A DNA stretch of 64,000 nucleotides from Actinomycetes bacterium (GTDB lineage: Bacteria; Actinomycetota; Coriobacteriia; Coriobacteriales; UBA8131), in the NCBI GenBank assembly GCA_009787085.1, contig WRGR01000045.1:64075-128074 (forward strand), read 5' to 3'. A program made the translations under genes and the position numbers. The notes beneath the pieces were generated by a model that was not told the DNA's origin, did no database searches, and was given only the letters and a program-made list of their open reading frames with translations. Positions 11,469 to 40,178 of this stretch are shown piece by piece (position 1 is the stretch's first letter; each line of letters starts with the position of its first letter).

Positions 11469-12557
11469 CTAACGCTCCGTGCAGCTGATGCAGGGGTCGA
11501 TAGTCAGGATGTTCAAGGGCACATCAGCAATGTCACAACCTTGCAGTATCTTGGTCATGCCACCAATGTTTTGCGCCGTAGGTGTACGGATACGGAAGCG
11601 CTCCAAGAATTTACTGCCATTGCCTTTGGCATAATAAAAACACTCACCGCGAGGCTGTTCCAAGCGGGAGGCCGAGACGCTACCGTCTTCGGGCGACCCC
11701 TTGACCTTGACCATTACCTCACCGTCAGGAATCTTGCTGACCAGCTCGACAATGATATCTATGGATTGCAAGACCTCTAGGGCACGAACTTTCGCCCGGC
11801 CATAACCGTCGCCGTCTTCACAGACTATCGGCTCAAACGCGCTCAAATAACCATAGCCGCCGAAACCGTAGCAACGGATGTCTTCCGCAACATTAGAAGC
11901 CCGGGCAAAGGGGCCGACCACGCAGTTGTCAATAGCATCCTGCTTGCTCAGATAGCCTACACCGATCAAGCGGCTCTTCACCGAGCCGTCGTTTAGGAAG
12001 GTCTTGGTCAGCTTGCTGTACTCGTTTCCCATGCCCTTCAGCACATCAACAATGCCCTTCAGTTCCTCATTCGTGATGTCATGGTAAACACCGCCGACGT
12101 TGCAGGCACTGAGGATCACCCGACCGCCCGTGGTGGCCTCAAAAATATCGAGAATGCGTTCACGTATCCGCCAGCATTGCATAAAAAGGTTCTCAAAGCC
12201 AAAGGCATCAGCCGCCAAGCCCATCCAAAGCAGGTGGCTATGAACACGGGACAGCTCATGCAGGATCACTCGCAGATACTCAGCGCGCTGGGGCACTTCA
12301 ATGCCCATCAGGATCTCAATAGTCTGCGAGTAGCCGAGGCTATGGCCGAAAGAGCAAATGCCGCAGATACGCTCAGTCACTGAGACAAAGGTGCTGTAAT
12401 CCTTTTTCTTTACCAGTTGCTCCAAGCCACGATGGACGAAGCCAATTTGCGGGATGGCTTCGACTACTGTCTCGTCCTCCACTACCAAGTCGAAGTGGAT
12501 GGGCTCTGGCAGAACTGGATGCTGAGGGCCAAAGGGGATTACTGTACGTTCAGCCAT
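11469..12557 (-). CDS. echE: Group 4 [NiFe]-hydrogenase large (catalytic) subunit
   Basis: 362 aa. N-terminal Ni-Fe ligand motif RICGICSFGH and C-terminal DPCISCTER, which is the last residue block with no cleavable extension. NuoD-like overall. The start overlaps the upstream stop (TAATG). Confidence 0.9.
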   Translation of the reverse strand: MAERTVIPFGPQHPVLPEPIHFDLVVEDETVVEAIPQIGFVHRGLEQLVKKKDYSTFVSVTERICGICSFGHSLGYSQTIEILMGIEVPQRAEYLRVILHELSRVHSHLLWMGLAADAFGFENLFMQCWRIRERILDIFEATTGGRVILSACNVGGVYHDITNEELKGIVDVLKGMGNEYSKLTKTFLNDGSVKSRLIGVGYLSKQDAIDNCVVGPFARASNVAEDIRCYGFGGYGYLSAFEPIVCEDGDGYGRAKVRALEVLQSIDIIVELVSKIPDGEVMVKVKGSPEDGSVSASRLEQPRGECFYYAKGNGSKFLERFRIRTPTAQNIGGMTKILQGCDIADVPLNILTIDPCISCTER

Positions 12558-12991
12558 TAGTTGCCCCCTTCCTGTCCGTCGGTGGGTTGGTCAGCAGATT
12601 TGCTGTCACGGTAGGTCACTGTGAAAGAATTGTCGACAAAGGGCGATTGCGGGTTCATCGGGGTTGGCACGCTGACACCATAGAACTTGCCGCCGAAGTC
12701 GATGGCAATGTCTTTAATGTTCACGCCGAACAAGTCGTGCACTTCGTTTTCAAACACCAGCGCGTTAAAGAAGATGTCACTCACAGCCGGCACCGTTGCG
12801 CCAGGCTCGGCCACCAAGCGCAACTGTTCAAACTCCTTAAAATCGGAAAACGAGTAAAGCAGCTCCACGCCACCAGGCACGGTCGAGCCAGTGAGAGCCA
12901 CAAAACGCCAGCCCTTTTGCTGGTAGTCACGCGCCTTGTCATGAATCTCGGCAATCGTGGTGTTAATAAAAACTTGGGGATCCATAGCCAT
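12557..12991 (-). CDS. echD: Hydrogenase NuoC-like subunit (EchD position)
   Basis: 144 aa with the NuoC-type motif ALVFENEVHDLFGVNI. Confidence 0.7.
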   Translation of the reverse strand: MAMDPQVFINTTIAEIHDKARDYQQKGWRFVALTGSTVPGGVELLYSFSDFKEFEQLRLVAEPGATVPAVSDIFFNALVFENEVHDLFGVNIKDIAIDFGGKFYGVSVPTPMNPQSPFVDNSFTVTYRDSKSADQPTDGQEGGN

Positions 12992-12994
12992 TGC

Positions 12995-13525
12995 TCATAC
13001 CTCCAATGCTGCTTTGACGGCTTCGTCAACCCGAACGCCATCAACGATCTTGGCAGCAGCGGTGACATCAGTGACCACCGGACGCGGAGCCAGCCGGTTC
13101 TCCTTCAAGGCGCTACGGCGCTCTTCGAGGATGCCCAAGCCGGTTACCACGGCATCGATAATCGCCTCCGGGCGAATAGCACACCCCGGAGCATAAACAT
13201 CGACCGGAATGGCATTGTCAACGCCGCCCAAAGTGTTGTAGCACTCCCGGAAGATACCGCCGGTACAGGCGCAAATTCCACAGGCAATGACCACTTTGGG
13301 GTCAGGTATCTGCTCATATATCTGTTGCAGCACTTTGATGTTCTGCTCATTGACACTGCCAGTGACCAAGAAAATATCAGCATGCTTGGGATTGCCAGTG
13401 TTGATGATGCCAAAACGCTCAACATCGTACATGGGTGTCAAACAGGCCAGTACCTCGATGTCACAGCCATTGCAGCTGGAAGCATCGTAGTGCAGCAGCC
13501 AAGGGGATTTTGCAGTTGCAGTCAC
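12995..13525 (-). CDS. echC: Hydrogenase small subunit (NuoB-like, one [4Fe-4S])
   Basis: SSCNGCDIE, ACGICACTGG and APGCAIRPE, the NuoB/EchC cysteine pattern. Confidence 0.88.
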   Translation of the reverse strand: MTATAKSPWLLHYDASSCNGCDIEVLACLTPMYDVERFGIINTGNPKHADIFLVTGSVNEQNIKVLQQIYEQIPDPKVVIACGICACTGGIFRECYNTLGGVDNAIPVDVYAPGCAIRPEAIIDAVVTGLGILEERRSALKENRLAPRPVVTDVTAAAKIVDGVRVDEAVKAALEV

Positions 13526-13534
13526 TATATCCTC

Positions 13535-14440
13535 CTAACCCAACCAGTGCCAATTAAGTGAGACCAAGTTAACAGTCACGCAAACTAACGTAACTATCCA
13601 AGACCATCTTAACATGGCACCCCACTTAACGCGGGCAAAGTTGTTGTCAATGAATATCTCCAGAAAATACACTACCAAAAGGGCAACGATCGCGATCGGA
13701 ATGGCCAGCCAATTTCCCCAGACGAAGAAGATGCCAGTCCATCCCAAGAAAAGGATGTTCTCGTACCAGTGGGTAACCTCGACCAAAGCCAAGGTGCGAC
13801 CGCTCATCTCCGTGGAGATACCCTTGACCAGCTCTTGGTGGGCATGATGTGAATAGCTAAGGTCAAATGGGCTTTTACGGAACTTGATGGTCAGGATGAA
13901 GAGGAAGCCAACGAAGATTAAGGGCAGACAAGTGATCAGCGGACGATCCAGTGCGAACACGGCGCTGGTGTCAAAAACACCTGGGTTACTAACCCCGTTC
14001 AGAACGTCCATGCCCAAATAAAAGGCGACGCAAAGCATGATGACCATCGGCTCATAGCTCATAACCTGGGCAATCTCGCGCTCAGCGCCGATCTCCGCAT
14101 AAGGGGAGCGGGTCGAATAGGCCGCGATCACGAAGAACAGGCTGGAAAGCGTGAGCACAAAAACCACCAGCAGGAAGTTGCCGCCGGCAAAGAAGATGAC
14201 GCCGGAGATGATGGCAAAGACCAGAGACATCAGGATATAAAAGCCCTGATAGCTGTTGACTGTCCACTTCTGCTTGTTCCAGAGCTTCAAAACGTCATAG
14301 AAGGGCTGTAGCAGGGGCGGGCCGACACGGCTTTGCAAACGGGCGGTGATCTTGCGGTCGACACCGGCCAACAAGCCGCCCAACAATGGGGCAAAGATGG
14401 TAAAGCAGACTAACGAAATGATGAAAGATACTATAGTCAT
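13535..14440 (-). CDS. echB: Hydrogenase integral membrane subunit (NuoH/HycD-like)
   Basis: 301 aa polytopic membrane protein of NuoH-like size, sitting between the antiporter-like and small subunits. Confidence 0.8.
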   Translation of the reverse strand: MTIVSFIISLVCFTIFAPLLGGLLAGVDRKITARLQSRVGPPLLQPFYDVLKLWNKQKWTVNSYQGFYILMSLVFAIISGVIFFAGGNFLLVVFVLTLSSLFFVIAAYSTRSPYAEIGAEREIAQVMSYEPMVIMLCVAFYLGMDVLNGVSNPGVFDTSAVFALDRPLITCLPLIFVGFLFILTIKFRKSPFDLSYSHHAHQELVKGISTEMSGRTLALVEVTHWYENILFLGWTGIFFVWGNWLAIPIAIVALLVVYFLEIFIDNNFARVKWGAMLRWSWIVTLVCVTVNLVSLNWHWLG

Positions 14441-14451
14441 GTGTCAGCCTC

Positions 14452-16458
14452 CTATATCTGAATGAAGTTCAGGCCGATGGAAATCGCCGCTGCCAAGCCA
14501 ATGACCAATAAGGCGATGGTCACAATATAGGATGGCAGATAAAGGGCTTTCTCCCCGAACACTTTGTCCAAATACCAGTTACGCTGGCTAGCCTTGGCAG
14601 TCTGGGAAAGCGAGTTGGTGTACTCCCGCTCCTCGGAGTTGGTGCCAACACCAGCCAAGTAAATGCCCACTTCGGCCTTGGAGCGTGGGCGGAAGAACTG
14701 GATGGCGAAGATTGCCAGCAAAAGCAAGGCGATCACGGCCATGATGATCAGGTTGTCCAAACTGATTGCAGCAGTGAGCAGCGTTGCGGGGAAGGCCGCC
14801 TTCAGATACGGAACCACCGAGAACTCCGAGATCAGCGGGAAGAACACGCACATGGCAAAGGCTAAGAAGGCCATCAGAGCCAACGAGAACCACTCCGTCT
14901 TATGCACACCCTTCTCGGCCTCATTACTGGCGTGGGAGACAGCAATGATCTTGCCCAGCCACTTCGACCAGAACATGAAGGTCGCCGCCGATCCGAAAGC
15001 CAAGATAACCAGCAATATCATGTTGCCGGTTTCGGCCAGCGAGACAATTGTCGCCCATTTGGAGATCAGCATGCCGAAGGGGGCAACGAACATGCAAAGG
15101 ATGCCTAGGGCAGTGAAACGCGAGATGTTCGGCAGACGGTCGAACAGCTCGTCCATGCTCTCGATATCGCGGCTGCCGATATGGTGCTCGGTAGTGCCGA
15201 CGCAAAGGAAGAGCAGAGACTTGGCCGCTGCGTGGAAGATCAACAAGAAGATGGCCGCCCAAACAGCCTCCGGCGTACCAACGCCGGCGCAGGCCACAAT
15301 CAGGCCAAGGTTGGCAATGGTGGAATAGGCCAGAACCCGTTTAGCGTTGGACTGCGAAATGGCCAAGCAAGAGCAGCCCAGGAAGGTCACGCCGCCGACT
15401 AAGACCACGATCCAGCCGTTGAAGTTCACAAGTCCGGTGGCAGTCGTAATACCTAGGCAAGGAGCCAGCTTGATAAGCATGAAGACACCGGCCTTGACCA
15501 TCGTCGAGGAGTGCAGCAAGGCCGAAGTCGGGGTTGGTGCCACCATGGCACCCAAAAGCCAAGTATGGAAGGGCATCTGCGCCGCCTTGGTGAAACCAGC
15601 CAGCGCTAGGAGCATCACCGGGAGCATCACCAAGACTGACGGCCCCTGGGCGATGAGTGCGCTCAACTCCAAAGTAGGCTTAGTGCCGGCTACTGCCCCG
15701 GAGGCCAAGATCACCAAAGCCACGGAGAAGGCGATACCGCCGAGCAGGTTCATGTAAATCTGCCTGAAGGAATTGCGGATAGCCTCATCAGTGCGGGTAT
15801 AGCCGATCAAGGCAAAGGAGCAAACGGTAGTGACTTCCCAACCGGTCAACAGCCAAGTCAGATCGTTGCTCAAAACAATAATGAACATCGCCGAGAGGAA
15901 GACAAACATCAGGGCAAAGAACACCGGTCGCCTGTCCTTTTTGCCATGTTCGTCCTCGTGTTTTTGGAAGTCTACCATGTAGCCGTTGGCATAGATGCAG
16001 ATGCCGCTACCGATAATGCCGATAACCAGCACCATAATCGCCGATAACCCGTCAATGTAGAGCTGATGGCTCATGCTCTCCAGAGCGTGATGCACCCAGA
16101 AGATCTCGAGGCAAACCACGACTACACCTTGCACCAAGGCCATCAACACCGCGAGGAAACGCTTATAGATAATACCCTTGGCAATTATGTAGACGCAGCA
16201 GATGATATCGATGGCCAAGGCAATATAGCCCAGCCACTCGGCATCCTTGATCAACAACGTGTCGCTGCCACCGGTTATGTAGCGCAGCCCAAAAGCCAGC
16301 GAAGCCAAAATGATCAAGGCGGCCAACACGACCACCAAGCCACCACGCACTTTTGCGTTACGAACCAAAAGCATAATCCCGGCAGCGATCACCGGAAGGA
16401 CAATTAGAACTGCTAGGTTCAGCTGTGTTATAAAGTCCATCTGTGTTACTACGTCCAT
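14452..16458 (-). CDS. echA: Hydrogenase antiporter-like membrane subunit (NuoL/HyfB-like)
   Basis: About 668 aa with many TM helices. The ATG at 16458 lies 6 nt after GAAGGAGG. The GTG at 16464 in the ORF track abuts the RBS and is less likely. Confidence 0.85.
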   Translation of the reverse strand: MDVVTQMDFITQLNLAVLIVLPVIAAGIMLLVRNAKVRGGLVVVLAALIILASLAFGLRYITGGSDTLLIKDAEWLGYIALAIDIICCVYIIAKGIIYKRFLAVLMALVQGVVVVCLEIFWVHHALESMSHQLYIDGLSAIMVLVIGIIGSGICIYANGYMVDFQKHEDEHGKKDRRPVFFALMFVFLSAMFIIVLSNDLTWLLTGWEVTTVCSFALIGYTRTDEAIRNSFRQIYMNLLGGIAFSVALVILASGAVAGTKPTLELSALIAQGPSVLVMLPVMLLALAGFTKAAQMPFHTWLLGAMVAPTPTSALLHSSTMVKAGVFMLIKLAPCLGITTATGLVNFNGWIVVLVGGVTFLGCSCLAISQSNAKRVLAYSTIANLGLIVACAGVGTPEAVWAAIFLLIFHAAAKSLLFLCVGTTEHHIGSRDIESMDELFDRLPNISRFTALGILCMFVAPFGMLISKWATIVSLAETGNMILLVILAFGSAATFMFWSKWLGKIIAVSHASNEAEKGVHKTEWFSLALMAFLAFAMCVFFPLISEFSVVPYLKAAFPATLLTAAISLDNLIIMAVIALLLLAIFAIQFFRPRSKAEVGIYLAGVGTNSEEREYTNSLSQTAKASQRNWYLDKVFGEKALYLPSYIVTIALLVIGLAAAISIGLNFIQI

Positions 16459-17087
16459 CGACACCCTCCTTCAAAGCTATTGGTGCCCACTTCCATCTGT
16501 TTAGCAGATGTTACTGACAATTTCGATTTCACAACTTCTCCTTCCAGCAAGATAGGGCGTACACGACTATCCAGTCGTCTTGGTGAAAACCGCGCAACCG
16601 CACTGCGAGTTACAACAACACGAGCCGCGGTGACCTAAGTTGGGATTGGCTCCTTCCGCAAAACCAGCTTCGCCGCATGACCTAGAAGATGTTTCCTGCC
16701 GCCCCCGACAGGGCGCCCCTGCCAGCTTCCCTATTGCTCAAAACGGCAATAGTCTTAGGCATCTCTTCTAGCTCCTCGTCCAAGACTCCCCAGCCCTGGT
16801 TCCAATCTCCAACCCGACAACAGAATGATAACGTGCTCTAAACTGTGATATTATATCGCACCTACAGCTGGGATGCAGTTCTGAGATTTACTATAAAGTT
16901 AAGATACTTTTCCTACAAAATGTATGAGAAGACAACGGCACTAGTCGGTGGCTTCCTGGGGAAGCAGCGTAAAAGATTGCGGCTCAAGGCCGCAATGACT
17001 GTACTTCGAGCATTGATCAACACTTCCCAAGCAGCACCTGTGTTAAAATCATCGGAACAAGTGCCTGTCAAACAGCGAGGAGTCCAA

Positions 17088-17669
17088 ATGCATGACAATC
17101 ACCATGGTCTTGACCAGACATCCAACGATCACGCCCACTCGCATGGGCACGGGCATGCACATACGCATGTGCATGAACATCCGCACACCCATACACATGA
17201 ACACCCGCACGACCATCCACATGCCGACAAGCATGAACATCCCCATGAGCACACACACAGCCACCCCCATGAACACACGCATGCCCATCCACATGAACAC
17301 CCGCACGACCATCCACATGCCGACAAGCATGAACATCCCCATGAGCACACACACAGCCACCCCCATGAGCACACGCATGCCCATCCAGATGAGCATGTGT
17401 GTGCAGAGGACCATGGTCACGACCACAGCCCGAGCCACAACAGCGCCGCCAACGGCAGCAACTCAGGCTTAAAAACATTGAAGTTGCTCTCTTACATGTT
17501 GGAGCACAATACCCAGCACACTCAGGAATTATCGGAGCTCGCCAACAAACTGGATAGCCATGGATTTGCTGAAGCCGCCCAACAAATGGCCCTCAGCGTC
17601 GAGCACTATCAGAGGGGCAATGATGCCTTAACAGCAGCGCTGCGCCTAGCAGAGAGGAAAGGGGCCTGA
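17088..17669 (+). CDS. Histidine-rich metal-binding protein (CooJ/Hpn-like function inferred) with a helical C-terminal domain
   Basis: The ATG at 17088 lies 6 nt after GAGGAG. I count about 49 His in the first ~113 residues (HxH/HEHPH repeats). The C-terminal ~75 aa are non-repetitive and helical (LKLLSYMLEHNTQHTQELSELANKL). A CooT-like gene follows directly. Confidence 0.8.
   Translation: MHDNHHGLDQTSNDHAHSHGHGHAHTHVHEHPHTHTHEHPHDHPHADKHEHPHEHTHSHPHEHTHAHPHEHPHDHPHADKHEHPHEHTHSHPHEHTHAHPDEHVCAEDHGHDHSPSHNSAANGSNSGLKTLKLLSYMLEHNTQHTQELSELANKLDSHGFAEAAQQMALSVEHYQRGNDALTAALRLAERKGA
17196..17387 (+). repeat. 96 bp x2 in-frame tandem duplication inside the His-rich gene
   Basis: 17196-17291 and 17292-17387 differ at one position as I read them (catgaAcacacgc versus catgaGcacacgc). 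Each copy encodes HEHPHDHPHADKHEHPHEHTHSHPHEHTHAHP. Confidence 0.95.
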
Positions 17670-17670
17670 A

Positions 17671-17874
17671 ATGTGCCTTTCGACTATCTATTATGCCGAT
17701 GATAAAAAACATGAAGAGCCACTGGCCGAAGATGTTACCGAGGTGCGCATAAGAGACGGTTGCCTTGTTTTTACCGACCTGATCGGCGCGGACACCGAGA
17801 TAGCCGGGGATATCGAGTGTATCGATTTTGTCCGCAGCTATATCACCGTGAGAAGACCCGAGGGCACTGCCTAG
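17671..17874 (+). CDS. cooT: CooT-family nickel-binding protein (CODH maturation)
   Basis: 67 aa starting MC (Cys2). The length and pattern resemble Rhodospirillum rubrum CooT (MCMAKVVL...). The start is 1 nt after the His-rich gene's stop. Confidence 0.7.
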   Translation: MCLSTIYYADDKKHEEPLAEDVTEVRIRDGCLVFTDLIGADTEIAGDIECIDFVRSYITVRRPEGTA

Positions 17875-17883
17875 GCTTGGCCT

Positions 17884-19008
17884 TTATCCTATACCCATCA
17901 GCTCAAAGGAAAGCAGCAGGTACCATTGAGATGGGATGTTCTCGTAATCGATTTGGATCAATTGCTTGATGCGGTCCAGCCGATAAGCCAAGGTGCTACG
18001 ATGGATAAAGAGCTCGTTAGCAGTACGGGTATAGTTGATGTTGTTCTTCAGTAGACTGCAAAGGGTATTGCAAAGCTCGCTGCCGTGCTGCTGATCGTAC
18101 TTTATCAAGGTTATTACATCAGGATCGCAAATCAAGTGAGCCGGCAGCCTTTCAGTACAAAGATCCAAAAGCATCGGTCGGACTACATTTTGAAAGCTGT
18201 GGCGGCAGGCTGTCGGCTGGATCTTACTGCCAACTAATAAGGCCAGTTCAGCCTGCGTATAATAGTAACGGAAGGCTTCAAACCCCGAAAACCAGTTGGA
18301 CATCCCCGCCTTGATCGAATTGTCCTGCAAAAACTGGTTAAAAACATTATCAAAATCCGCTTCATCGCCGGTAAAGATATCGAGGTTGACGAAGGAGACA
18401 ACATTGCCTTCATAAACAAACGTGCCATCCTGTGCAAACAGCGAAACAATGCGCTCACTGATAAAACGCAGGGGATGTTCGTTGCGATTCAATGGATCGA
18501 CATGCAATTTCAAGCACCGGTAATGGTGGCTGGACAGCCAACCATGGGGATGCAGGGCACTTTCCAAATTGTAATGGGTCAACGATTGGTCAGTCATATA
18601 GCAGCTGATGGTTCGGGAAAGGCTAAGACCCTGTAGGGCGTACTCGGGCAGTGCAACGCTGGTTTGGCCAATCATACTGTACTCAGCAAAGATTTCCTGT
18701 ATCCGGTTATGGATTTTTCCGAACGGTGCATCGCTGGCAAACGACAATACCGCGTTGAAGTGTTTTGCAAATTCATCGGGCAGCGAGCCTATGACCAGCA
18801 CAGTGGAGTCATAGTTGCCTTTGGGGGTCTCGACCACCTGATTGGCCTGGACTAAGTAAAGGCAGGAGTCGACCCATTCCATCTGCTCCTCTGCCAATAA
18901 AAGAACAGAGAGGCCAAGCTGGCTACTGGGCTGGCCGACAAGCTCGAACTTGAACTCCTCGCGCAGCCTTTCCACTATCGTAGCGGCACTGATTTGCATG
19001 GGCATCAC
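17884..19008 (-). CDS. PucR/CdaR-family transcriptional regulator
   Basis: C-terminal PucR-type HTH NYTRTANELFIHRSTLAYRLDRIKQL. It is the last gene on the acs-operon strand. Confidence 0.8.
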   Translation of the reverse strand: MMPMQISAATIVERLREEFKFELVGQPSSQLGLSVLLLAEEQMEWVDSCLYLVQANQVVETPKGNYDSTVLVIGSLPDEFAKHFNAVLSFASDAPFGKIHNRIQEIFAEYSMIGQTSVALPEYALQGLSLSRTISCYMTDQSLTHYNLESALHPHGWLSSHHYRCLKLHVDPLNRNEHPLRFISERIVSLFAQDGTFVYEGNVVSFVNLDIFTGDEADFDNVFNQFLQDNSIKAGMSNWFSGFEAFRYYYTQAELALLVGSKIQPTACRHSFQNVVRPMLLDLCTERLPAHLICDPDVITLIKYDQQHGSELCNTLCSLLKNNINYTRTANELFIHRSTLAYRLDRIKQLIQIDYENIPSQWYLLLSFELMGIG

Positions 19009-24281: not shown

Positions 24282-27200
24282 TTACGCGTTCTGTTGATCG
24301 AGCATTTCGAATATTGCATTCTTGGCAACCTTGGCTGCCTCCGGATGGTACATCACCAAGATGTCGCCACCGGCTTGCAAGAGCGTCATCGCAGTGGTTA
24401 ACTCCCACATCGCAGAGCGCTTCTTGACATCGCCCCAAAGCGGGTAATCCGCCTCGGGAGCTTTGAACTCCTTGCACTTGGCACTCTCAAAGCCAGCCGT
24501 GACGATCATCGGTGCGCAAAGCATCTGGTCACCGCCAAGGCCGGTCAAACGGATACGCTCCATGACCGAATAGGTGTACTCAACACCGTAGCCGATTGAG
24601 CTGGACAGAGGATCCATGATGATCCGGTTCTGAGGCAAGCCCATGTTAGTAAGCAGAATGGCCATCTGCTTGCTGATGTTCACATCGATGGGTGCTTGGG
24701 AGACGAGCGAATGGCCATAAGCCATGGCAGCACCGGCGATGGTACGGTAGTTGTCCTGCTCAACCCAGTTCAACAACAGGTTCTCACCTTCGAAGCTCTG
24801 GGCGATAGCCTTGAACACCTCGTTGTTGGAATCAAAATGGCTGGTTCCAGTAACAATCAGGGGTACATCCACAGCCTTCAGAACCTCACCGACGAGATCC
24901 ACGGACTGCTGCGGGCTGCGGTTGCCTTTCTCAGGATGCGTGGCATCCAAGCGCACGGAGATCATGTCAGCGCCATACTTCTCCACACAGGCAGCAGCCA
25001 TAGCAGCCGGATCATTAACCAAATCTCCGTAAACCTCACGTAGAATCTCCGGGTACTTATCGGAAACCTCGTCGAAGACCTCCATGGCTAGCAGCGGTCG
25101 ATTGGGCATCTTGCCCTCGAAGAGCTGGAAGGGCATGCAGTTGTGGCCACCAACGGTATAGGTCTTGGCACGGGTGCCGCCTTCCTCCTTGGTTGCACCA
25201 AGCTTGACTTCCCAAATCTCATTCTCACAGACCTCTTTGTTCACCGGGAACGATGTGACTTCGGCGATCAGGTCAGCCGCCTTGGGCTGCGCACTGACGG
25301 AAACCGATGCACCAGCAGCAGCTGTACCGCCGGCTTCACCTAGGGACACGGACTTACCCAAGAACTTCTGGGAAAGAACCTCGATGATCGAGGCTACAAC
25401 GTCCTCAGTGACCGACGAGCGCACCTCGGTGGCCATCTGCTCACGCAGGGCCTCCATATCCGCACCGCTGAGCTCAGTTGTAGTGCCAGCGGCAGCGGCG
25501 GCAGTCTCGACCTCGGCAGCCTTCTCAGTCTTGTGCACAGCCGGAGTGTCGTCTTCTTTCTGCATGTACTCGGTCATGTCGTCCATCTCCAGAGCCGGAT
25601 GGTTGACCTTCTCCATAAAGGCACGCAGCTCCTCGGCAGTGGTGGCGATGGTCTCGTCAGCGATCTTGTCGAACATGTCCGCAACACCCTGCTCATCCAA
25701 GCGCTTCTTCATATCCTCGGCGATCGACTCTTTAAGCTCCTTGGGCATCCAAGCCAAGCGACGGAAGCCGCCCTCTGCCGAGCAGAATTTACGAGAGGTC
25801 AAGAAGACCTTGCCGATGCCGACAAAGCCCGGTGTCTGCATACCGCCGCCGACGTTACCGGCCAGTGATGAGAAGGTCATGCCGCAAGGCGTGTCGCCCA
25901 AAAACTCGCGGTTGACAACCATCACGCCGTTGACCTCCGGCACATAAGCCACGATCGCCTCAAAGCAACCGCAACTGGTCATCGGCCGATCCATGATGGA
26001 ATAGGCACAAAACTCCTCGATCGCTTTATGGCTGCTGGTGTAGACAAACTCGTTGATGCCTTCCCAGACGCCTTTGGACTCATCAAGACAAGTACCCTTG
26101 GCGATCGGTTGGTTGGGGCCGGTGGGGTCGATCTCGTGGGCGGCCTTGCCATCCAGCCAGTTATAGGCACCGCAGAGGCCAAGGCGCTCCGGTGTGATAA
26201 CACAAACGTGGTTCGGGGCAAAGCTCTGGCAGAGCAAGCAGGAGTAGAAGATGTCCACAGAGTCGTCAGTCATAGCCTCCAAGCGGCGGTTGCGCTCGTC
26301 ATAGACTTTGCGAGCAACAGCTTGGCGCTTCTCCACTTCCTCGGCATCGGTTACCAAGGTCACCTTGACCTTGTCGACGATGGCCGGGTAGTCGGCCAGC
26401 AGCTTGGCATGCAGGATCTCGCCGTAGTGGCGCATCCGCAAACCCTTGTTGTAGCCGTCCTTGGAAACACGGGTCCAAACGATGTCGCGCTGACCCATGT
26501 GCCAAATGCCCTCAGCACCGTTCACCATGTGGTGCACTTGACGCTCGAGGATCGGCTCGAAATCGACCTGCATCTTGCGACCGGCAGCCTCGACCCAGAT
26601 CGCCAAGGGCAATGCCGTACCCGGCTCGACCTCGTCGATATCCGGGCCGATCAGCTCGATCTCACCGTCCTCGATGTCTTCTGGCTCGACCATGGTGACA
26701 AACTCGAAGGCCGAGGTCTTGTTGCCGCCGAATTCGACCTGGGTGTCTTCCTTGCGGATCCGCTCGCCCTCGAAGGCCGGGCCGTAGGCCACTGGCACAG
26801 GAACGTCAACGATCTTGATCTTGCAGCCTCTGACATCCAGAGCCTTCTCCACGATGGTTTCCAGCGGCACGTTGGCAACAACATGCTCGTAGGTACAAAC
26901 GCCCGTAGGCAGGATCTCCGGAATGTTAGTGTCGGCGATGGTCGGGAAGCCGTAGTTGATGGCACCAGCAGCGGCGGCATATTTGTCCGGCGTAACCTCG
27001 CCCAACGCCAAGACAAAGGCGAAGATGCGGTCCTTGTTGTATTTCAGATGTGCCTCGAAGTCACCGGGTTTGACACCGCCGAAGGACATTGCGGCGCGGC
27101 TGGCGAAGCCGAGTGCGTAGATCAGGGCGGAGACATCGCTGCCGAAGGGCACCAAGCGGGTCTCCCAACCCAGCTGGACACCTTCTTCTTCCAGTTGCTC

Positions 27201-27749
27201 GGCAAACTGCTTGCCGTTGGAAGTGCCGCCCATGAAGACGTAGAGGTTGCGCTGCTGAAGCTCTTTGGCAATGCTCACGGCGGTGGCGTTATCGGCTACC
27301 GAGCCGCAGATGGCAGCAAAGCCAGGGGCTGTGCCGTCCACGAACTCAATGCCGCGCTCGCGCATGATAACATCGGTCGCCGCACCCAGCCAAATGCCGT
27401 CGACCGGCTTGGGGCCGACGAGGTACTTACAGGCCTCGAGTATCTCGCAAGCAAACAGAGCAGCCACGCCGGCATCCAAAGTGTTGCCTAGGTATGGCAG
27501 CCAAACATCGTCGACCGGGCGGGCGGGCAGCAAGTCCCGGGCACCCTTCAAGACTTCTTTGGCATCCTTCAGGGTCTCCACCTTCTTGCCGGTGAAACCA
27601 TAGATTACCGGCAGATAATACGCAGTGTCCGGAAACCCGACGGCGCCGTCCTCGCCAAATTCCTTGATAGCCTCGTCAAGCTTAGCCTCCGCTTTGACGA
27701 CCCATTCCACTGCTCCGTCAATCGCGGATGTTGCTATGATTTTAGACAT
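24282..27749 (-). CDS. Acetyl-CoA synthase (AcsB) fused in frame to the CFeSP small subunit (AcsD)
   Basis: 1155 aa. Residues ~1-735 are AcsB-like (GFPDTAYYLPVIYGFTG; A-cluster cysteines CLLCQSFAPNHVCVITPERLGLCGA and SCGCFE). A ~100 aa Ala/Thr/Glu-rich linker is encoded at about 25225-25555. The C-terminal ~320 aa are AcsD-like (IWEVKLGATKEEGGTRAKTYTVGGHNCMPFQLFEG, YGADMISVRLD, IMDPLSSSIGYGVEYTYSVMERIRL). There is no stop or frameshift between the parts. Confidence 0.9.
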   Translation of the reverse strand: MSKIIATSAIDGAVEWVVKAEAKLDEAIKEFGEDGAVGFPDTAYYLPVIYGFTGKKVETLKDAKEVLKGARDLLPARPVDDVWLPYLGNTLDAGVAALFACEILEACKYLVGPKPVDGIWLGAATDVIMRERGIEFVDGTAPGFAAICGSVADNATAVSIAKELQQRNLYVFMGGTSNGKQFAEQLEEEGVQLGWETRLVPFGSDVSALIYALGFASRAAMSFGGVKPGDFEAHLKYNKDRIFAFVLALGEVTPDKYAAAAGAINYGFPTIADTNIPEILPTGVCTYEHVVANVPLETIVEKALDVRGCKIKIVDVPVPVAYGPAFEGERIRKEDTQVEFGGNKTSAFEFVTMVEPEDIEDGEIELIGPDIDEVEPGTALPLAIWVEAAGRKMQVDFEPILERQVHHMVNGAEGIWHMGQRDIVWTRVSKDGYNKGLRMRHYGEILHAKLLADYPAIVDKVKVTLVTDAEEVEKRQAVARKVYDERNRRLEAMTDDSVDIFYSCLLCQSFAPNHVCVITPERLGLCGAYNWLDGKAAHEIDPTGPNQPIAKGTCLDESKGVWEGINEFVYTSSHKAIEEFCAYSIMDRPMTSCGCFEAIVAYVPEVNGVMVVNREFLGDTPCGMTFSSLAGNVGGGMQTPGFVGIGKVFLTSRKFCSAEGGFRRLAWMPKELKESIAEDMKKRLDEQGVADMFDKIADETIATTAEELRAFMEKVNHPALEMDDMTEYMQKEDDTPAVHKTEKAAEVETAAAAAGTTTELSGADMEALREQMATEVRSSVTEDVVASIIEVLSQKFLGKSVSLGEAGGTAAAGASVSVSAQPKAADLIAEVTSFPVNKEVCENEIWEVKLGATKEEGGTRAKTYTVGGHNCMPFQLFEGKMPNRPLLAMEVFDEVSDKYPEILREVYGDLVNDPAAMAAACVEKYGADMISVRLDATHPEKGNRSPQQSVDLVGEVLKAVDVPLIVTGTSHFDSNNEVFKAIAQSFEGENLLLNWVEQDNYRTIAGAAMAYGHSLVSQAPIDVNISKQMAILLTNMGLPQNRIIMDPLSSSIGYGVEYTYSVMERIRLTGLGGDQMLCAPMIVTAGFESAKCKEFKAPEADYPLWGDVKKRSAMWELTTAMTLLQAGGDILVMYHPEAAKVAKNAIFEMLDQQNA

Positions 27750-27814: not shown

Positions 27815-29800
27815 TTAATGAGCCGAGCGGCGATCAGCCATGTCGAACAGCTTGCGCTCAACCTTCTTGTTGATACCCAGAGCATCCCTAGCCGCGTTCA
27901 GTATCTCGATGATCCGCTCAACAGCCTCCATGGGATCCTCAATCAGATGGAACGATGCACCGAATAGTTCTTTGGTGTCCTCATACAAGAACTTGCTCAC
28001 TTTTTCGGAACCGGACACATAAAACTCGTTGCCCAAGATGACGTCAACACCCGATGCCACACAATAGCAACCGATGGCAATAGCCTTTTCGCTCATCCAT
28101 TCCGGAGCCACGCCAACTGCCGGCAGACCGGCGATATCGTCACCCAAGCCGCCTTCTTTAACAATCTCAGTGGCAGCTTCCAAGATACGGGAGTTGTCCA
28201 CGCAGCTGCCCATATGCAGGATCGGCGGAATGCCGACGGCCTCGCAGACCTCAGCCAAGCCGGCACCGGCATGCTCACGGGCATACTCCGGTGTCATGTA
28301 GCCGGCCTTACCGGCAGCGATAGCCGCACACCCGGTCTCGATAACCAAGACGTTCCGCTTGATCAGCTCTTCGGCCAAAATACCGCTGTAGCTGTCGGCA
28401 CGCTGCTTGGGATTGTTGCAGCCGACGATGCCGACGATGCCCAAGATCCGGTTTTGGATGATGGCGTCGTTCAGCGGCCGGAAGGAGGCACGATACTTAC
28501 CGCCCAGCATGTACTTGATAGCGTCCACCGAGAAACCGGCGATCAGCGGCTCATGCTCGGAGGGTATCTTGACCTTCTCTGGGTCGCGATTCTTGAAGTT
28601 ATCGATCGCCCGCTTGATGATGTTCTTGGCCGACTCGATGGGTGCCTCTTCATCGAAGCCCATGTGGGTGGCACCGGCCATCTTGGCGATCTCCTGGGTG
28701 GAGACGATCTCGGTGTGATAATGTGCAGCCACTTCCGGAAGTGCTGGCATGCAGCACTGGACATCGATGACCATCATCTCCACAGCACCGGTGATGACAG
28801 CCAGTTCCTGCTGCAGGGAGTTGCCGGCGATGACCACGCCCTGACGCATCAAGACCTCGTTGGCCGTGCAGCAAACGCCAGCGATGGTAATGCCCTCGGC
28901 ACCGGCAGCTTTGGCATATTCCGCGATCTCCGGGTCTTTGACGGCGAAGGTCAGCATCTCAGAGAGGGTCGGCTCATGACCGTGAATCAGAATGTTCACG
29001 GTTTCGTTCTTCAGAACGCCCAAGTTGGCCGCTGACTTCAGCGGCGCAGGGGTGCCGAAGAGAATGTCGGAAGTCATGGAAGCAATGCGGGCACCGCCCC
29101 AACCGTCGGCCAGCGAGGTACGGAAGGCATGCATCAAAAGGTTTTTGTAGTCGTGGTCCACGCCCATGGTGGTACGATGCATGGCCTCGACACACATCCG
29201 GTCAACGCCCTTGGGGGCAACGCCGGTCTGCTGCCAAATGCCTTGGCGTTTCTGAGGAGCCAGCGCCAACGTGGCCAAGTAGTCTTCCTGAGACATGAAG
29301 TCATGCAGGAAGATGTCGGTCAGCTCCAAGGCGATCTGAGAGGCCGTCTTGTCCTCGGTCTCAATGCCGTAGAGCTTGGCCACCCGAACCAGCGCCTTCT
29401 CGTCTTTGATGGTGTAGCCATGACCCTCGCCCTTGGCGATCTCCCGAAGCTTCAAAACCAGATGACGGCCATGGTCGGAGTGCGCAGCGGTACCGCCCAC
29501 TACCTCACGCAGGAAGTTGCGTGCGGCAATGGTGTCAGCGGTGGCACCGCAGATGCCCTTCGGAGCCTTAGGGGTGATGCGGCACGGACCCATGTGGCAA
29601 ATGCGGCAACAAACACCGGATTTGCCAAAAGTACACTGGTTCTTCTGGGTTTCCATGCGGTCGAAACAAGTTTCAACACAATCGTCCAAAGCCTTGTTCA
29701 ACATCGCCAAGGACGCATTGTCCACGACTTTGTTTGCGTTCTCAACAATCTTGTCTTTCAGTTCTTGGTCTTTGTCTTTCTTTTCTTTATCTGCTGCCAT
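27815..29800 (-). CDS. acsA: Anaerobic carbon-monoxide dehydrogenase catalytic subunit
   Basis: CRICHMGPCRI, HGHEP, GVCCTANE and GSCVDNSR, the cluster B/C/D ligand motifs of CooS/AcsA. Confidence 0.93.
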   Translation of the reverse strand: MAADKEKKDKDQELKDKIVENANKVVDNASLAMLNKALDDCVETCFDRMETQKNQCTFGKSGVCCRICHMGPCRITPKAPKGICGATADTIAARNFLREVVGGTAAHSDHGRHLVLKLREIAKGEGHGYTIKDEKALVRVAKLYGIETEDKTASQIALELTDIFLHDFMSQEDYLATLALAPQKRQGIWQQTGVAPKGVDRMCVEAMHRTTMGVDHDYKNLLMHAFRTSLADGWGGARIASMTSDILFGTPAPLKSAANLGVLKNETVNILIHGHEPTLSEMLTFAVKDPEIAEYAKAAGAEGITIAGVCCTANEVLMRQGVVIAGNSLQQELAVITGAVEMMVIDVQCCMPALPEVAAHYHTEIVSTQEIAKMAGATHMGFDEEAPIESAKNIIKRAIDNFKNRDPEKVKIPSEHEPLIAGFSVDAIKYMLGGKYRASFRPLNDAIIQNRILGIVGIVGCNNPKQRADSYSGILAEELIKRNVLVIETGCAAIAAGKAGYMTPEYAREHAGAGLAEVCEAVGIPPILHMGSCVDNSRILEAATEIVKEGGLGDDIAGLPAVGVAPEWMSEKAIAIGCYCVASGVDVILGNEFYVSGSEKVSKFLYEDTKELFGASFHLIEDPMEAVERIIEILNAARDALGINKKVERKLFDMADRRSAH

Positions 29801-29916: not shown

Positions 29917-30675
29917 TTAGAAATTTTTGACAATCTCGTCGACTTTCTTAATGACGGCATTGTCTGAAGGAAGCTCCAAGAAAACTCGTGAATCCTCGGC
30001 GAACTTCGCCACTTCCTCATCGTCGGGCAAAAAGTAAATCTCGTCTGCCCCGGTCGCAACACGGACCTCTTCAGCAGCTTTCGGCACCTGGTCGCTACGC
30101 AAGCGGTTGATCACCAAGACCAACTTCTTGTAATTCAGCTTCATCTCATTGGCCAAATCATGCAAACGACCGAGCGTCCTGATACCCGCATTGGATGAGT
30201 CAGAAACCAGCATCAGCACGTCAACATCGGCCACAATGCGGCGAGAGAGGTTCTCTAGCCCGGCCTCATTGTCCAAAACAACATAGGGGTACTCGCCAGA
30301 CAGCTTCTGGATCACGGTTTTCAGCACACCGTTGGCGTAACAATAGCAGCCTGCTCCTTCTGGACGCCCCATCGATATCATGTCGAATCCCTTGGACTCC
30401 ACGAGGCTCTCGTTGATCTTCATTTGCAGCACCTCGGTATTAGAGATGCCGCTGTCTTTGTCCTGAGCGTTGTCCCGGGCTTCTTCACGGGCTGCGCCCA
30501 CGGATTTGGTAACCGTGACCCCCAGCGCCGTGTCTAGACAGCTATTCGGATCGGCATCAATAGCCAACACCGGCTTCTTGCCGGCCTCGATCAGCTGCTT
30601 GACGATCATTGACGAGATGGTTGTCTTGCCAACACCACCCTTTCCGGATATCGCCACAAAAAACGTCATGCGCAA
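29917..30675 (-). CDS. cooC: CooC/AcsF-family Ni-insertion ATPase (copy 2)
   Basis: P-loop SGKGGVGKTT and CxC metal motif GAGCYCYANG. The start may be the Met at 30669. Confidence 0.85.
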   Translation of the reverse strand: MRMTFFVAISGKGGVGKTTISSMIVKQLIEAGKKPVLAIDADPNSCLDTALGVTVTKSVGAAREEARDNAQDKDSGISNTEVLQMKINESLVESKGFDMISMGRPEGAGCYCYANGVLKTVIQKLSGEYPYVVLDNEAGLENLSRRIVADVDVLMLVSDSSNAGIRTLGRLHDLANEMKLNYKKLVLVINRLRSDQVPKAAEEVRVATGADEIYFLPDDEEVAKFAEDSRVFLELPSDNAVIKKVDEIVKNF

Positions 30676-31448
30676 ACCTCCAGTTTATCGAGTATTTCCT
30701 GATAGATAGCCACCAGCTCGGGGCTTGCGGTATCCAGAACCGATACGCCGTCACGATCCGCGGCCCGGATCGTGTCAGAATAGGGAATGATTCCCAGAGG
30801 CTCTGAGGGAAGCTGTTCGCGAACGTAGTCCTCTTCCCCGGCATTAGCTACCTTGTTAGCAACAAACTCCACATGCTGAAGGCCGATCTCTCTGGCCATC
30901 CGGTCTATGGTAATAGCAGCATCGATCGAACGCTGGCCGGGCTCGACGACACAAACCACCACATCCACGCCCTTGACAGTAGAACGCCCCAAATGCTCAA
31001 TGCCTGCTTCCATGTCCATAATCAAAGTCTGGTTTTGGAACAAGACCAAGTCGGTGGTCAAGGATTGTGCGAAGACGTTCTCCGGACACGCGCACCCTGA
31101 CCCACCGGCTTGGATCGCACCAAGCACTAGGAGCGAGATGTTGCCTCTTTTGTACGCGAACTTGTCAGCTACGTCATGCACCTCGGGATTGAGCTTGAAA
31201 ACCTGCCCATACCGGTTCACTTTCGCGCCAGTGCGCTCTTCGATCAGGGCGATCTGTTTGGAGATCGGCACGATCTTGCTTTGCTCGGCATGCGAGATGC
31301 CCAAGGCCTGAGCCAAGTTAGCATCCGGATCAGAGTCAAACGCCAGCACCTCGCCGCCCTCTTTGGAGAGCAGCAAGGCAAGCGCAGCAGCAAGGGTGGA
31401 TTTGCCTACTCCACCCTTACCGGTAACGGCGATTTTCTTTCCCGCCAT
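30666..31448 (-). CDS. cooC: CooC/AcsF-family Ni-insertion ATPase (copy 1)
   Basis: P-loop TGKGGVGKST and CxC motif GGSGCACPEN. Confidence 0.85.
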   Translation of the reverse strand: MAGKKIAVTGKGGVGKSTLAAALALLLSKEGGEVLAFDSDPDANLAQALGISHAEQSKIVPISKQIALIEERTGAKVNRYGQVFKLNPEVHDVADKFAYKRGNISLLVLGAIQAGGSGCACPENVFAQSLTTDLVLFQNQTLIMDMEAGIEHLGRSTVKGVDVVVCVVEPGQRSIDAAITIDRMAREIGLQHVEFVANKVANAGEEDYVREQLPSEPLGIIPYSDTIRAADRDGVSVLDTASPELVAIYQEILDKLEVCA

Positions 31449-37919: not shown

Positions 37920-38626
37920 AATGGCAGCTTCTCCCGAGGCAAATCGCTATTCCCTTCGGGTGACTCGCTATTCTCCCGATGCAGATCGTTTAGATGACTG
38001 TTCAGATTTTCTTCCAACTTGGCTAGTCGCTGCTCCAATTGGGAGATCTGCGCCTCCACCGGGTCGGGCAACAGGTCGCGGCGGTAGGGGTCAGCTGGGC
38101 AGATGCGGATGCCTTGCTGGCTGACTACATGCCCGGGAATGCCGACCACAGTGGAATCCGGCGGCACGTTATCCAACACCACAGCGCCGGCTCCGACTTT
38201 GCTGCGAGCGCCAATGGTGATGTTGCCGAGCACCGCCGCGCCGACTCCGATCACGGCACCGGCCTCGACGTTCGGATGGCGCTTACCGCCCTCCTTGCCA
38301 GTGCCGCCCAAGGTCACCCCTTGGTAGATGGTAACATCGTCGGCCACGTCGGTAGTCTCGCCGATGATCACACCCATGCCATGGTCGATGAACACCCGGC
38401 GACCGATAATCGCGCCGGGATGGATCTCAATACCAGTGAAAAACCGCGTGACCTGAGACACGAAGCGGGCCAAACCGCGCCGCCCGTGCCGCCAAAGCCA
38501 ATGCTCGCAACGGTGCGCGGCCACCGCCTGAATGCCGGGATAGTTCACCAGAATGCCAAGAGTCGAGGTGGCCGCCGGATCACGTTCCTTAACGGCTTGG
38601 ATATCTTCTCGCAGGGCGCTTACCAT
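37916..38626 (-). CDS. cysE: Serine O-acetyltransferase
   Basis: Left-handed beta-helix hexapeptide repeats (GIEIHPGAIIGRRVFIDHGMGVIIGET) and a SATase N-terminal region. Confidence 0.9.
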   Translation of the reverse strand: MVSALREDIQAVKERDPAATSTLGILVNYPGIQAVAAHRCEHWLWRHGRRGLARFVSQVTRFFTGIEIHPGAIIGRRVFIDHGMGVIIGETTDVADDVTIYQGVTLGGTGKEGGKRHPNVEAGAVIGVGAAVLGNITIGARSKVGAGAVVLDNVPPDSTVVGIPGHVVSQQGIRICPADPYRRDLLPDPVEAQISQLEQRLAKLEENLNSHLNDLHRENSESPEGNSDLPREKLPL

Positions 38627-38630
38627 GGGC

Positions 38631-39146
38631 TCAATCTTGCCTCTTTCCCTCTAACAATGCAACAGCTGTGGCCGAAATACCTTCGCCTCGGCCTGTGAAC
38701 CCCAAACCCTCGCTAGTGGTCGCCTTGACACCAATCATCCGAGTGCTAATACCCATAGCCGCCGCCAAGGTTTGGCGCATTGCCTCTCGGTAACCAGCCA
38801 GCTTCGGCTGCTCGGCAACGACCACGGAGTCGATGTCTAGGATATAAAAACCCTCACCGGCAAGCATCTCGGCCACGTTCTTTAACAACAGCAGCGAATT
38901 GGCACCACAGTATGCCGGATCATCATCTGGGAAATGCGACCCGATGTCATCCATTCGAGCCGCTCCGAGCAATGCGTCGATTATAGCATGAACCAAAACG
39001 TCGGCATCAGAATGCCCCGACAAACCACGGAAATTCCGGATATGCACACCGCCAATGACCAACGGTCGGTTGTCGTTAGGTGCAGCAAAAGCATGCACAT
39101 CATGGCCGATGCCGATATGCAGACCAACACCTACTGGCAGGCTCAT
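38631..39146 (-). CDS. ispF: 2-C-methyl-D-erythritol 2,4-cyclodiphosphate synthase
   Basis: GIGHDVHAF, GHSDADVLVHAIIDALLGA, DIGSHFP. Confidence 0.92.
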   Translation of the reverse strand: MSLPVGVGLHIGIGHDVHAFAAPNDNRPLVIGGVHIRNFRGLSGHSDADVLVHAIIDALLGAARMDDIGSHFPDDDPAYCGANSLLLLKNVAEMLAGEGFYILDIDSVVVAEQPKLAGYREAMRQTLAAAMGISTRMIGVKATTSEGLGFTGRGEGISATAVALLEGKRQD

Positions 39147-39249
39147 AGCTGCACAGCCGAAACTTGGCTGGGGCGGTCCAGCTCACAATCTGGCATAACA
39201 GCATTGATCGGCATCTCCCTAAGAAAAGCGCCGCCGGCCACGAATGCCC

Positions 39250-40152
39250 TCATTCTGCCCCTTCATCCTTCAGCCGAATCATCAGGCCGGCTTCCACGGA
39301 TGCCCAATCCTCGGGTACCGTGATCTTGATGTTGTCCCTGGGACCGCGCACCAACACCACGTTCCCCTCGATCCGCTCCACCAGCGAGCTGTCGTCAGTG
39401 CCCACAAAGCCTTCAGCCAAAGCGGTGGCATGGGCAGTGCGGATCACCTCGGAGCGAAAGACCTGAGGGGTTTGAGCAACCCAAAGCAAAGAACGGTCCG
39501 GGGAACCGATGATATTGGTGCCGTTGACCACCTTCAGGGTATCGATAGCCGGATAACCCACCACCGCGCCATCAATCTCTAGGTTACCGCGGACAGTGGA
39601 GATAACATGATTGATCAACTCCGGGGTGATCAGCGGTCGGGCGCCATCGTGCACAGCTATCAGCTCATAGCCCTCAGGCACGGCATTAATGCCGACAAAG
39701 GACGACTCCTGACGGACCACCCCTGCCGCCACCATCACTATCGGGGTGACAAAGGGAAAGGCATCAATCGCCTGATGGCAGTATTCCTCCATCCGCCCTT
39801 CTGGTGCCGCTATGACGATCAGGCCGACATCAGCCACGGCATCAAAGGCCTCGGCGCTCCACGTCAGGATAGGCTTGCCATGGATCTCCAACAGCTGCTT
39901 GCCGCCAGTACGACCGAAGCGCTCTCCGGCACCACCGGCCACGATCACGGCAGCCGTGCTCGGGTGGTCGGAAACCTGGCCTTTGATGGCCGTCAATGCA
40001 GCAACCACACCGTCCAAACGCCCCTGTTTCAGCAAAACCCCGGGAGCCTCCAGCACCGCTGGCGTTTTTACCGGATCCCGGGAACCACCGGCAGTCGATT
40101 GTTTGTTCAACCGGTTATTCGCACTAACGGGATTTGCGGGATACTCTGGCAT
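39250..40152 (-). CDS. ispD: 2-C-methyl-D-erythritol 4-phosphate cytidylyltransferase
   Basis: AAVIVAGGAGERFG and the downstream IspD core. About 60 N-terminal residues of the ORF show no similarity, so the true start may be an internal non-ATG codon. Confidence 0.85.
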   Translation of the reverse strand: MPEYPANPVSANNRLNKQSTAGGSRDPVKTPAVLEAPGVLLKQGRLDGVVAALTAIKGQVSDHPSTAAVIVAGGAGERFGRTGGKQLLEIHGKPILTWSAEAFDAVADVGLIVIAAPEGRMEEYCHQAIDAFPFVTPIVMVAAGVVRQESSFVGINAVPEGYELIAVHDGARPLITPELINHVISTVRGNLEIDGAVVGYPAIDTLKVVNGTNIIGSPDRSLLWVAQTPQVFRSEVIRTAHATALAEGFVGTDDSSLVERIEGNVVLVRGPRDNIKITVPEDWASVEAGLMIRLKDEGAE

Positions 40153-40178
40153 GGCTGACCAATACTGTTCTTCGGCTC

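Follow-up and report, generated by a model that had tools for sequence, protein, structure and literature searches.

CooJ of Rhodospirillum rubrum has an N-terminal domain that is helical, and its C-terminal tail, with 16 histidines (His), binds four nickel (Ni) ions at a dissociation constant (Kd) of 4.3 uM (PMC6006190). Growth of this bacterium on carbon monoxide (CO) at low Ni requires CooC, CooT and CooJ (PMC6006190). CooJ is hard to find by sequence (bioRxiv 10.64898/2026.03.10.710785), and the same preprint, citing Darrouzet et al. 2021, assigns an N-terminal His-rich region and an HWxxHxxxH Ni site to the CooJ proteins of Shewanella fodinae (SfCooJ) and Clostridium pasteurianum BC1 (CpBC1 CooJ). 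According to a genomic-context study, CooJ occurs with CooT in clade E carbon monoxide dehydrogenase (CODH) operons that are tied to one-carbon metabolism. In Clostridium autoethanogenum, a His-rich protein named hp (CAETHG_1604 / LABRINI_07945) and a CooT-family protein named nbp are encoded on the flanks of the C1 gene cluster and are conserved in many acetogens (PMC10230548). Deletion of hp or nbp changed growth and lowered AcsB and CooS1 in that species, and the deleted hp segment of 341 bp is consistent with the protein size typical of the family (PMC10230548). Here we describe a gene for an extremely His-rich protein of 193 amino acids (aa), located directly upstream of cooT in a metagenome-assembled genome (MAG) of the class Coriobacteriia (assembly GCA_009787085.1, 1.83 Mb, 94% complete). 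The analysis covers positions 64,075 to 128,074 of contig WRGR01000045.1, and this whole stretch of 64,000 nt is referred to as the window.

We consider it probable that the protein is a CooJ-like, or hp-type, Ni metallochaperone or buffer which, with CooT, is predicted to supply Ni(II) to CODH and acetyl-CoA synthase (ACS). The pairing with CooT, proposed in a preliminary description of the window, was confirmed by the match of the next open reading frame (ORF) to Pfam PF10133. The cooT gene starts 1 nt past the TGA stop of the His-rich gene, a spacing at which the two genes appear to be translationally coupled, and CooT begins with M-C-L-S. Like hp and nbp of the acetogens, the pair comprises a small His-rich gene directly beside a CooT-family gene, next to a Wood-Ljungdahl (CODH/ACS) cluster. 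In contrast to hp, the protein studied here is encoded in a Coriobacteriia MAG, is 193 aa long and carries approximately 4-7 times the usual number of His. The pair matches both the published hp/nbp pair and the layout of CooJ with an N-terminal His tail, and it is therefore of a kind already known.

The His-rich partner of CooT and its family

The plus-strand open frame spans positions 16845-17669, and the start at 17088 is credible because GAGGAG lies 5 nt upstream and because an M-H-D/E N-terminus is common to the homologues. Proteins starting with Met-His make up 66% of 264 family sequences (MHD, MHE, MHL, MHI, MHG and others). Residues 1-113 contain 48 His, which agrees with the preliminary count of about 49 in the first ~113 residues; 49 His precede the conserved motif described below, and the whole protein has 53. 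They are mostly arranged in strict (H-x)n alternation, with HEHPH-type units. The gene is the most His-dense ORF of its genome. Among 144 family representatives with a locatable motif, the median number of N-terminal His is 7.5 and the 95th percentile is about 28; the window protein, with 49 versus 35 in the next highest, has the longest His tract, and even without the duplicated unit described in the next section it would keep 34 and stay near the top. A second His-rich ORF was noted on another contig (C40, approximately 38346-40450) of the same small genome, with 17 His in 40 residues (including HPHDHDHDCEHGHSHSHPHAHDDHEHH). It is preceded by two tandem genes for CobW/COG0523-type GTPases and could be part of another metal-chaperone set; a tblastn search with the CobW-type proteins of this genome gave no match in the 58 loci of named species considered below.

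The non-repetitive helical C-terminal domain that had been proposed from the sequence is supported by structure prediction with AlphaFold2. Modelled at full length, the protein has two helices, 124-157 and 161-192, which are joined by a loop at 158-160 into a hairpin with a predicted local distance difference test score (pLDDT) of 96-98, while residues 1-123 have no secondary structure and a pLDDT of ~50. The C-terminal domain modelled alone is also a helical hairpin (pLDDT 90). Two alignments of 72 sequences each (A2 and A4), made without motif filtering, agree on the invariant residues Y136, M137, H140, N141, H144, E147, A164, G177, N178, L181 and A184, and Y-M occupies the positions equivalent to 136-137 in 223 of the 264 family sequences. 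According to the hydrophobic periodicity, N141, H144 and N178 are on core heptad positions, flanked by H140 and E147. Structured metal sites have this appearance, a conserved polar layer within a helical bundle, and we regard the modelled layer as a putative site. Foldseek also aligned the hairpin with those of sulerythrin and rubrerythrin, which are di-metal four-helix-bundle proteins, a di-Ni form among those matched, at a root-mean-square deviation (rmsd) of ~1.1 A over 60 residues and with non-significant E values. This likeness is only a hint that the H-x2-E motif and the Asn layer could form a metal site inside the bundle.

The preliminary description had recommended a search for homologues of the C-terminal domain, and a large family was indeed found. 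A word-index search limited to the C-terminus returned nothing; an exhaustive phmmer search with residues 118-193 then yielded 185 representative clusters at E<=1e-3, the best with E=1.4e-13 and 57% identity. The matching proteins are 53-220 aa long and nearly all match at their C-terminus, giving a family plan in which a variable His-rich N-terminal stretch is followed by a conserved domain of ~57 residues. A profile search gathered 454 proteins, and every match listed carries the precomputed tag PF26551.1. The window protein shares with this family the C-terminal similarity, the pattern Y-M-x-x-H-N-x-x-H-x-x-E with G-N, and a gene directly upstream of cooT; its assignment to PF26551 is based on the tags of the homologues. 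Neither the whole protein nor its C-terminal domain was assigned to a family by Pfam and NCBIfam scans, which gave chance matches only. Against the Protein Data Bank (PDB), the single sequence retrieved only low-complexity matches (circumsporozoite protein, zinc fingers), and the family profile only designed helical proteins. No paper mentioning PF26551 was found in a literature search, and a cluster look-up for ten family representatives turned up no cultured organism. NCBI lists the tagged proteins as 'cobalt transporter' or 'hypothetical protein'. Some members have other architectures or neighbours: P0049 and P0015 include a segment like the C-terminal part of CobW, P0065 has an N-terminal domain like S-adenosylmethionine methyltransferases, and at loci L011, L015, L037 and L058 the hairpin gene precedes a methyltransferase or pterin-binding gene, without CooT. 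The hairpin domain may thus have partners other than CooT. The window gene is an unusually long and extreme member of an already known and widespread family, and as a kind of gene it is ordinary.

Of 41 genomes from the same taxonomic family and order, the hairpin domain is present in eight, including the genome of the window, and it is encoded directly upstream of CooT in all seven relatives; CooC is often encoded next, and a PucR-type regulator often lies beside the pair. CooT is confined to exactly the same eight genomes. ACS was found in seven of these eight and convincingly in no other of the 41. In one relative, G010 (locus L005), the pair is accompanied by CooC and the start of a CODH gene, and ACS was not detected; the homologue of another, G018 (L007), has an extra Ala/Pro-rich tail after the hairpin and is separated from CooT by ~200 nt. 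A scan of species genomes with a 10-sequence alignment of the family located 58 loci, in Oscillospiraceae, Lachnospiraceae, other Clostridia, termite-gut Treponema and Coriobacteriales. At least 49 of them have, a few nucleotides downstream, an ORF of 61-81 aa that contains M-C-(L/I)-(S/A) and is taken as CooT. Within 6 kb, CooC-like genes occur at 29 of these loci and ACS at 13, and many loci have ACS or CODH.

The preliminary description regarded the order of the domains as opposite to that of CooJ. This holds for the R. rubrum protein, in which the His tail is C-terminal, but not for the CooJ proteins of S. fodinae and C. pasteurianum BC1, whose His-rich region is N-terminal. The latter two share with the window protein a disordered N-terminal His-rich region, a helical domain of ~60 residues with a His motif on its first helix, and genes for CooT and CooC beside a CODH; they are reported to retain the motif HWxxHxxxH, whereas that of the window protein is Y-M-L-E-H-N-T-Q-H. 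The window locus likewise combines a His-rich N-terminus, with 48 His in 113 residues as a counterpart to SfCooJ and CpBC1 CooJ, with an adjacent cooT and with two CooC-type genes and a CODH gene 10-13 kb away in the same island. The gene order differs, being J-like gene and T (then C in the relatives) in the family of the window protein versus C-T-J in the CooJ systems. With R. rubrum CooJ (PDB 6HK5) the protein shares the predicted helical hairpin, the His tract and the proposed role with CooT and CooC; it differs in the position of the tract, in the number of His (16 in R. rubrum) and in the lack of the first His of the motif. More generally, His-rich segments for Ni storage or delivery occur in Hpn and Hpn-like of Helicobacter pylori, in some HypB proteins and in the tails of SlyD and UreE. 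These segments, too, are disordered and buffer the Ni destined for a Ni enzyme, but they are attached to other folded domains and serve other client enzymes, and no homology is implied. The M-H start recalls the M-H-E N-terminal Ni site of HypA; together with Cys2 of CooT, it suggests that in both partners, as in HypA, the second residue behind a free N-terminus may act as a metal ligand.

Several observations weigh against a CooJ-like role in Ni supply. The hairpin was aligned by Foldseek with chain E of 6HK5 (6HK5_E; TM-scores of 0.72 and 0.84 normalised to query and target, rmsd 1.4 A, 62 columns, 18% identity), but with E=2 this match has rank 31, no better than many generic helical hairpins. 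The canonical CooJ motif H-(W/F)-x-x-H-x-x-x-H is present in part, with two of the three His, Tyr in place of the first His and Met in place of W/F. In addition, the 6HK5 sequence was matched neither by the family profile (PDB, E<=10) nor by the single sequence. Because the profile misses 6HK5 and the structural match has this rank and E value, homology to CooJ is not demonstrated. From architecture and context, hp is a candidate member of the same family, and in C. autoethanogenum added nickel left the phenotype of the nbp deletion unchanged (PMC10230548). Relatives carry the label 'cobalt transporter' at NCBI, and given the few members without CooT or with other domains attached, the hairpin domain may serve other metals or clients. 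We therefore file the protein as a PF26551-tagged member of the hp type that would work like CooJ.

If the protein acts as such a Ni chaperone, two hairpins would pair, like those of R. rubrum CooJ, to give a four-helix bundle, and the H-x3-H-x2-E face together with the Asn layer in the core would form a defined Ni site of higher affinity. The His tract would bind many further Ni ions at micromolar affinity and serve as a local reservoir, with perhaps ~10-12 Ni per chain at roughly four His per Ni, a ratio taken from the R. rubrum tail. Ni(II) would be handed to Cys2 of CooT, then to CooC, probably through the two CooC-type ATPases, and finally to the C- and A-clusters of CODH/ACS, which is encoded 10 kb away.

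The 96-bp tandem repeat and its copy number

The His tract includes an in-frame tandem duplication of 96 bp with a single nucleotide difference, as the preliminary description had claimed and as direct comparison of the two copies verified. The difference, A at 17273 versus G at 17369, is synonymous (GAA/GAG), and both copies encode HEHPHDHPHADKHEHPHEHTHSHPHEHTHAHP. Tandem Repeats Finder reported a period of 96 with 2.3 copies and 94% match, in addition to older sub-periods of 24, 36 and 48 nt, which indicate that the tract grew as an 8-residue HEHPHxHx unit was duplicated again and again. The 96-bp duplication most likely originated by slippage or unequal recombination in a tract already made of 24-nt sub-repeats. 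It adds 15 His, and slippage or recombination can equally remove the unit again.

Copy number was judged from the break points of contigs in independent assemblies that bear an identical CooT or EchA protein. Two Logan k=31 contigs are 100% identical to the window; that of SRR5247073 begins at 17339, and that of SRR5247074 stops at 17223. In the two-copy sequence, repeated 31-mers start at 17194-17242 and at 17290-17338; on the left side, the last unique 31-mer ends at 17223, and on the right side, the first unique one begins at 17339 and is the first that covers the copy-2 G. In the one-copy sequence, by contrast, no 31-mer is repeated, and exact repeats reach at most 14 nt. The two-copy template predicts both contig breaks and the one-copy template does not, and therefore the Logan contigs support the duplication. 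The junction from copy 1 to copy 2 reads GCCCATCCA followed directly by CATGAACACCCG, and the 31-mer across it is ACGCATGCCCATCCACATGAACACCCGCACG. A scan of metagenomes with the exact 40-mer flanking the repeat gave no match.

An independent contig of the ENA assembly ERZ27257311 (402 kb, k141) is 99.9% identical to the window, with seven mismatches in 6.3 kb, and holds exactly one unit, which carries the G variant as copy 2 does. This contig might be seen as a sign that the second copy of the repeat arose during assembly and that the organism has a single 96-bp unit and a protein of 161 aa. However, the two copies are not identical, and the A variant lies 19 nt from the junction between them, so that a de Bruijn assembler would be unable to invent this junction. 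Furthermore, both Logan contigs break exactly where the two-copy template predicts, the one-copy sequence gives no reason for either break, and the repeated 31-mers of the tract occur nowhere else in the genome. The single unit of the ENA contig represents either a true allele, ancestral or generated by deletion through unequal recombination, or a collapsed assembly loop, which would likewise leave the G variant. We regard an artefact as unlikely, and the duplication is probably real. The copy-number changes that the preliminary description predicted for such a repeat gain partial support from a 99.9%-identical assembly with one copy, although assembly collapse could explain that copy; the number of units may vary between strains.

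Metal, client enzyme and surrounding genes

Metal specificity is absent from His tracts, and the protein could instead be a general divalent-metal (Co/Zn) buffer or a cobalt chaperone rather than a Ni chaperone for CODH; the corrinoid protein encoded at the ACS locus would be one such client. The name 'cobalt transporter' used for relatives would be in line with this, and so would the members that include a CobW-C-like segment or a methyltransferase by fusion, and those encoded beside a pterin-binding methyltransferase gene without CooT. However, the near-obligate partner CooT is a Ni-binding protein, the commonest further neighbours are CooC-type ATPases for Ni insertion, and a small soluble hairpin without a membrane segment shows no transporter features behind the NCBI name. 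A cobalt or zinc role is quite unlikely in our view.

The preliminary description proposed that the protein serves both the adjacent CODH and the Ech hydrogenase as a Ni buffer or chaperone. The CODH part of this proposal is supported by the coupling to CooT and by the position of the pair beside CooC, CODH and ACS genes across phyla; the Ech part was not borne out. The His-rich gene diverges from echA across a 620-bp intergenic region and both enzymes require Ni, from which one could suppose that the Ech-type [NiFe] hydrogenase is served by the pair, either alongside CODH/ACS or in its place. Nevertheless, this adjacency alone ties the pair to Ech. The genes for HypD, HypA and a HypB-like GTPase are in other parts of the genome, which leaves service to Ech unsupported, and in the relatives and at the named loci the neighbours of the pair are CooC, CODH and ACS genes, with co-occurrence of the pair and ACS in the relatives. 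In addition, CooCTJ was reported to be uninvolved in maturing the CO-induced hydrogenase of R. rubrum (PMC6006190). Service to Ech, alone or shared, is thus very unlikely.

Although gene calling on the ENA contig gave an antisense ORF and no plus-strand gene, and although the exact product is missing from a protein collection under 10 starts, it is hardly credible that the true product lies on the opposite strand or that the tract is non-coding low-complexity DNA, since conservation of the C-terminal domain extends across phyla, with E values as low as 1e-13 and invariant residues, the gene has a Shine-Dalgarno sequence, coupling to cooT and the shared M-H start, and the sole difference between the repeat copies is synonymous in the plus frame. 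The collection holds 15 billion proteins and gave no match to the exact product of the window with the 10 in-frame starts tried, but it does contain CooT and the regulator from the ENA contig. In the ENA assembly the plus-strand gene was missed and the antisense ORF of 77 aa was called instead; gene callers mishandle the His tract.

The coordinates of the features are given in Table 1. The His-rich gene and cooT form a small plus-strand unit of their own between the hydrogenase and the CODH/ACS operons. The minus-strand run that converges on cooT comprises genes for the PucR-type regulator, two DUF3786 proteins, a ferredoxin, a Zn-ribbon protein, RACo, an AcsC-like protein, the ACS-CdhD fusion, CODH, two CooC-type ATPases and a homocysteine S-methyltransferase-type protein. 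No Rfam family, such as a NiCo riboswitch, was found in 16300-17300, a consensus scan for promoters and terminators around the pair gave nothing above chance, and a tblastn search of plasmids with CooT returned no match.

Table 1. Positions of the His-rich gene, its parts and the neighbouring genes in the window.
Feature	Position	Strand	Remarks
Ech/complex-I-like [NiFe] hydrogenase operon	11469-16464	-	Left of the pair; divergent from the His-rich gene
Minus-strand region of the antisense ORF call in the ENA assembly	17049-17478 (2475-2708 in L068)	-	77 aa
Shine-Dalgarno-like GAGGAG	17077..17082	+	5 nt ahead of ATG at 17088; read from sequence
Gene for His-rich CooJ-like / hp-type protein	17088..17669	+	193 aa; translation; stop codon counted in
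N-terminal His-rich region, residues 1-123	17088..17456	+	M-H start; predicted disordered, pLDDT ~50
Copy 1 of 96-bp unit	17196..17291	+	32 aa, 15 His; A at 17273
Copy 2 of 96-bp unit	17292..17387	+	32 aa, 15 His; G at 17369
C-terminal helical hairpin, residues 124-192	17457..17663	+	Family-defining domain; AlphaFold2; homologues tagged PF26551
Motif Y136-M-L-E-H140-N141-T-Q-H144-T-Q-E147-L148	17493..17531	+	Helix 1; putative structured metal site; alignments
G177-N178	17616..17621	+	Helix 2; invariant; predicted opposite H140/H144, facing inferred from hairpin register
cooT	17671..17874	+	Partner; 67 aa, Cys2; Pfam PF10133, E=1.2e-14, 27-bit cut-off
PucR-type helix-turn-helix regulator	17884..19008	-	Convergent with cooT, 9 nt between stops; Pfam HTH_30
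ACS fused to CdhD/AcsD-like module	24282..27749	-	Second Ni enzyme of the locus; PF03598, PF19436, PF03599
CODH (Prismane/CooS family)	27815..29800	-	Presumed client enzyme; PF03063, E=2e-166
Two tandem CooC-type (CbiA/MinD family) ATPase genes	29917..31448	-	Upstream of the CODH gene; PF01656, E=3e-14 and 2e-17

A homologous PucR-type regulator adjoins the pair in several relatives (L003, L005 and L006), and the nearest named relatives of the regulator in the window are from Coriobacteriia and Coriobacteriales MAGs. The regulator is at most 374 aa long in the window (332 aa in the public record) versus mostly 498-507 aa in related Coriobacteriia; only ~67-70% of the query aligns, and in this genome the protein may have lost part of its N-terminus or been rearranged. 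ACS (CODH_A_N, CdhC, ACS_CODH_B_C) and the CdhD/AcsD-like module share one frame of 1155 aa, and an open frame of 1207 aa is found at ACS in the relative G011.

Implications for Ni supply to CODH/ACS

The His-rich partner of CooT is of interest in the context of the route by which Ni reaches the C- and A-clusters of CODH/ACS. This partner is poorly annotated, appearing under 'cobalt transporter' or 'hypothetical' names, and one gene caller missed the window gene altogether. Apart from these aspects, it is the sort of accessory gene that one would expect at a Wood-Ljungdahl locus.

A further-reaching view, which we put forward as speculative and rather doubtful, is that the hairpin family could be a separate metallochaperone family and not a diverged CooJ, with a buried His/Asn/Glu Ni site in a four-helix bundle, and that CooT would have it as an obligate partner in CODH/ACS organisms from four or more phyla. 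The His tract would then act, through its length, as a capacity dial, driven by slippage, fast-evolving and polymorphic in populations (one versus two 96-bp units), which tunes the amount of Ni held near CODH/ACS. The conserved H-N-H-E/G-N layer offers specific residues for mutation, and the putative natural allele pair, with one versus two 15-His units in near-identical backgrounds, would be suited to asking whether tract length sets Ni capacity.

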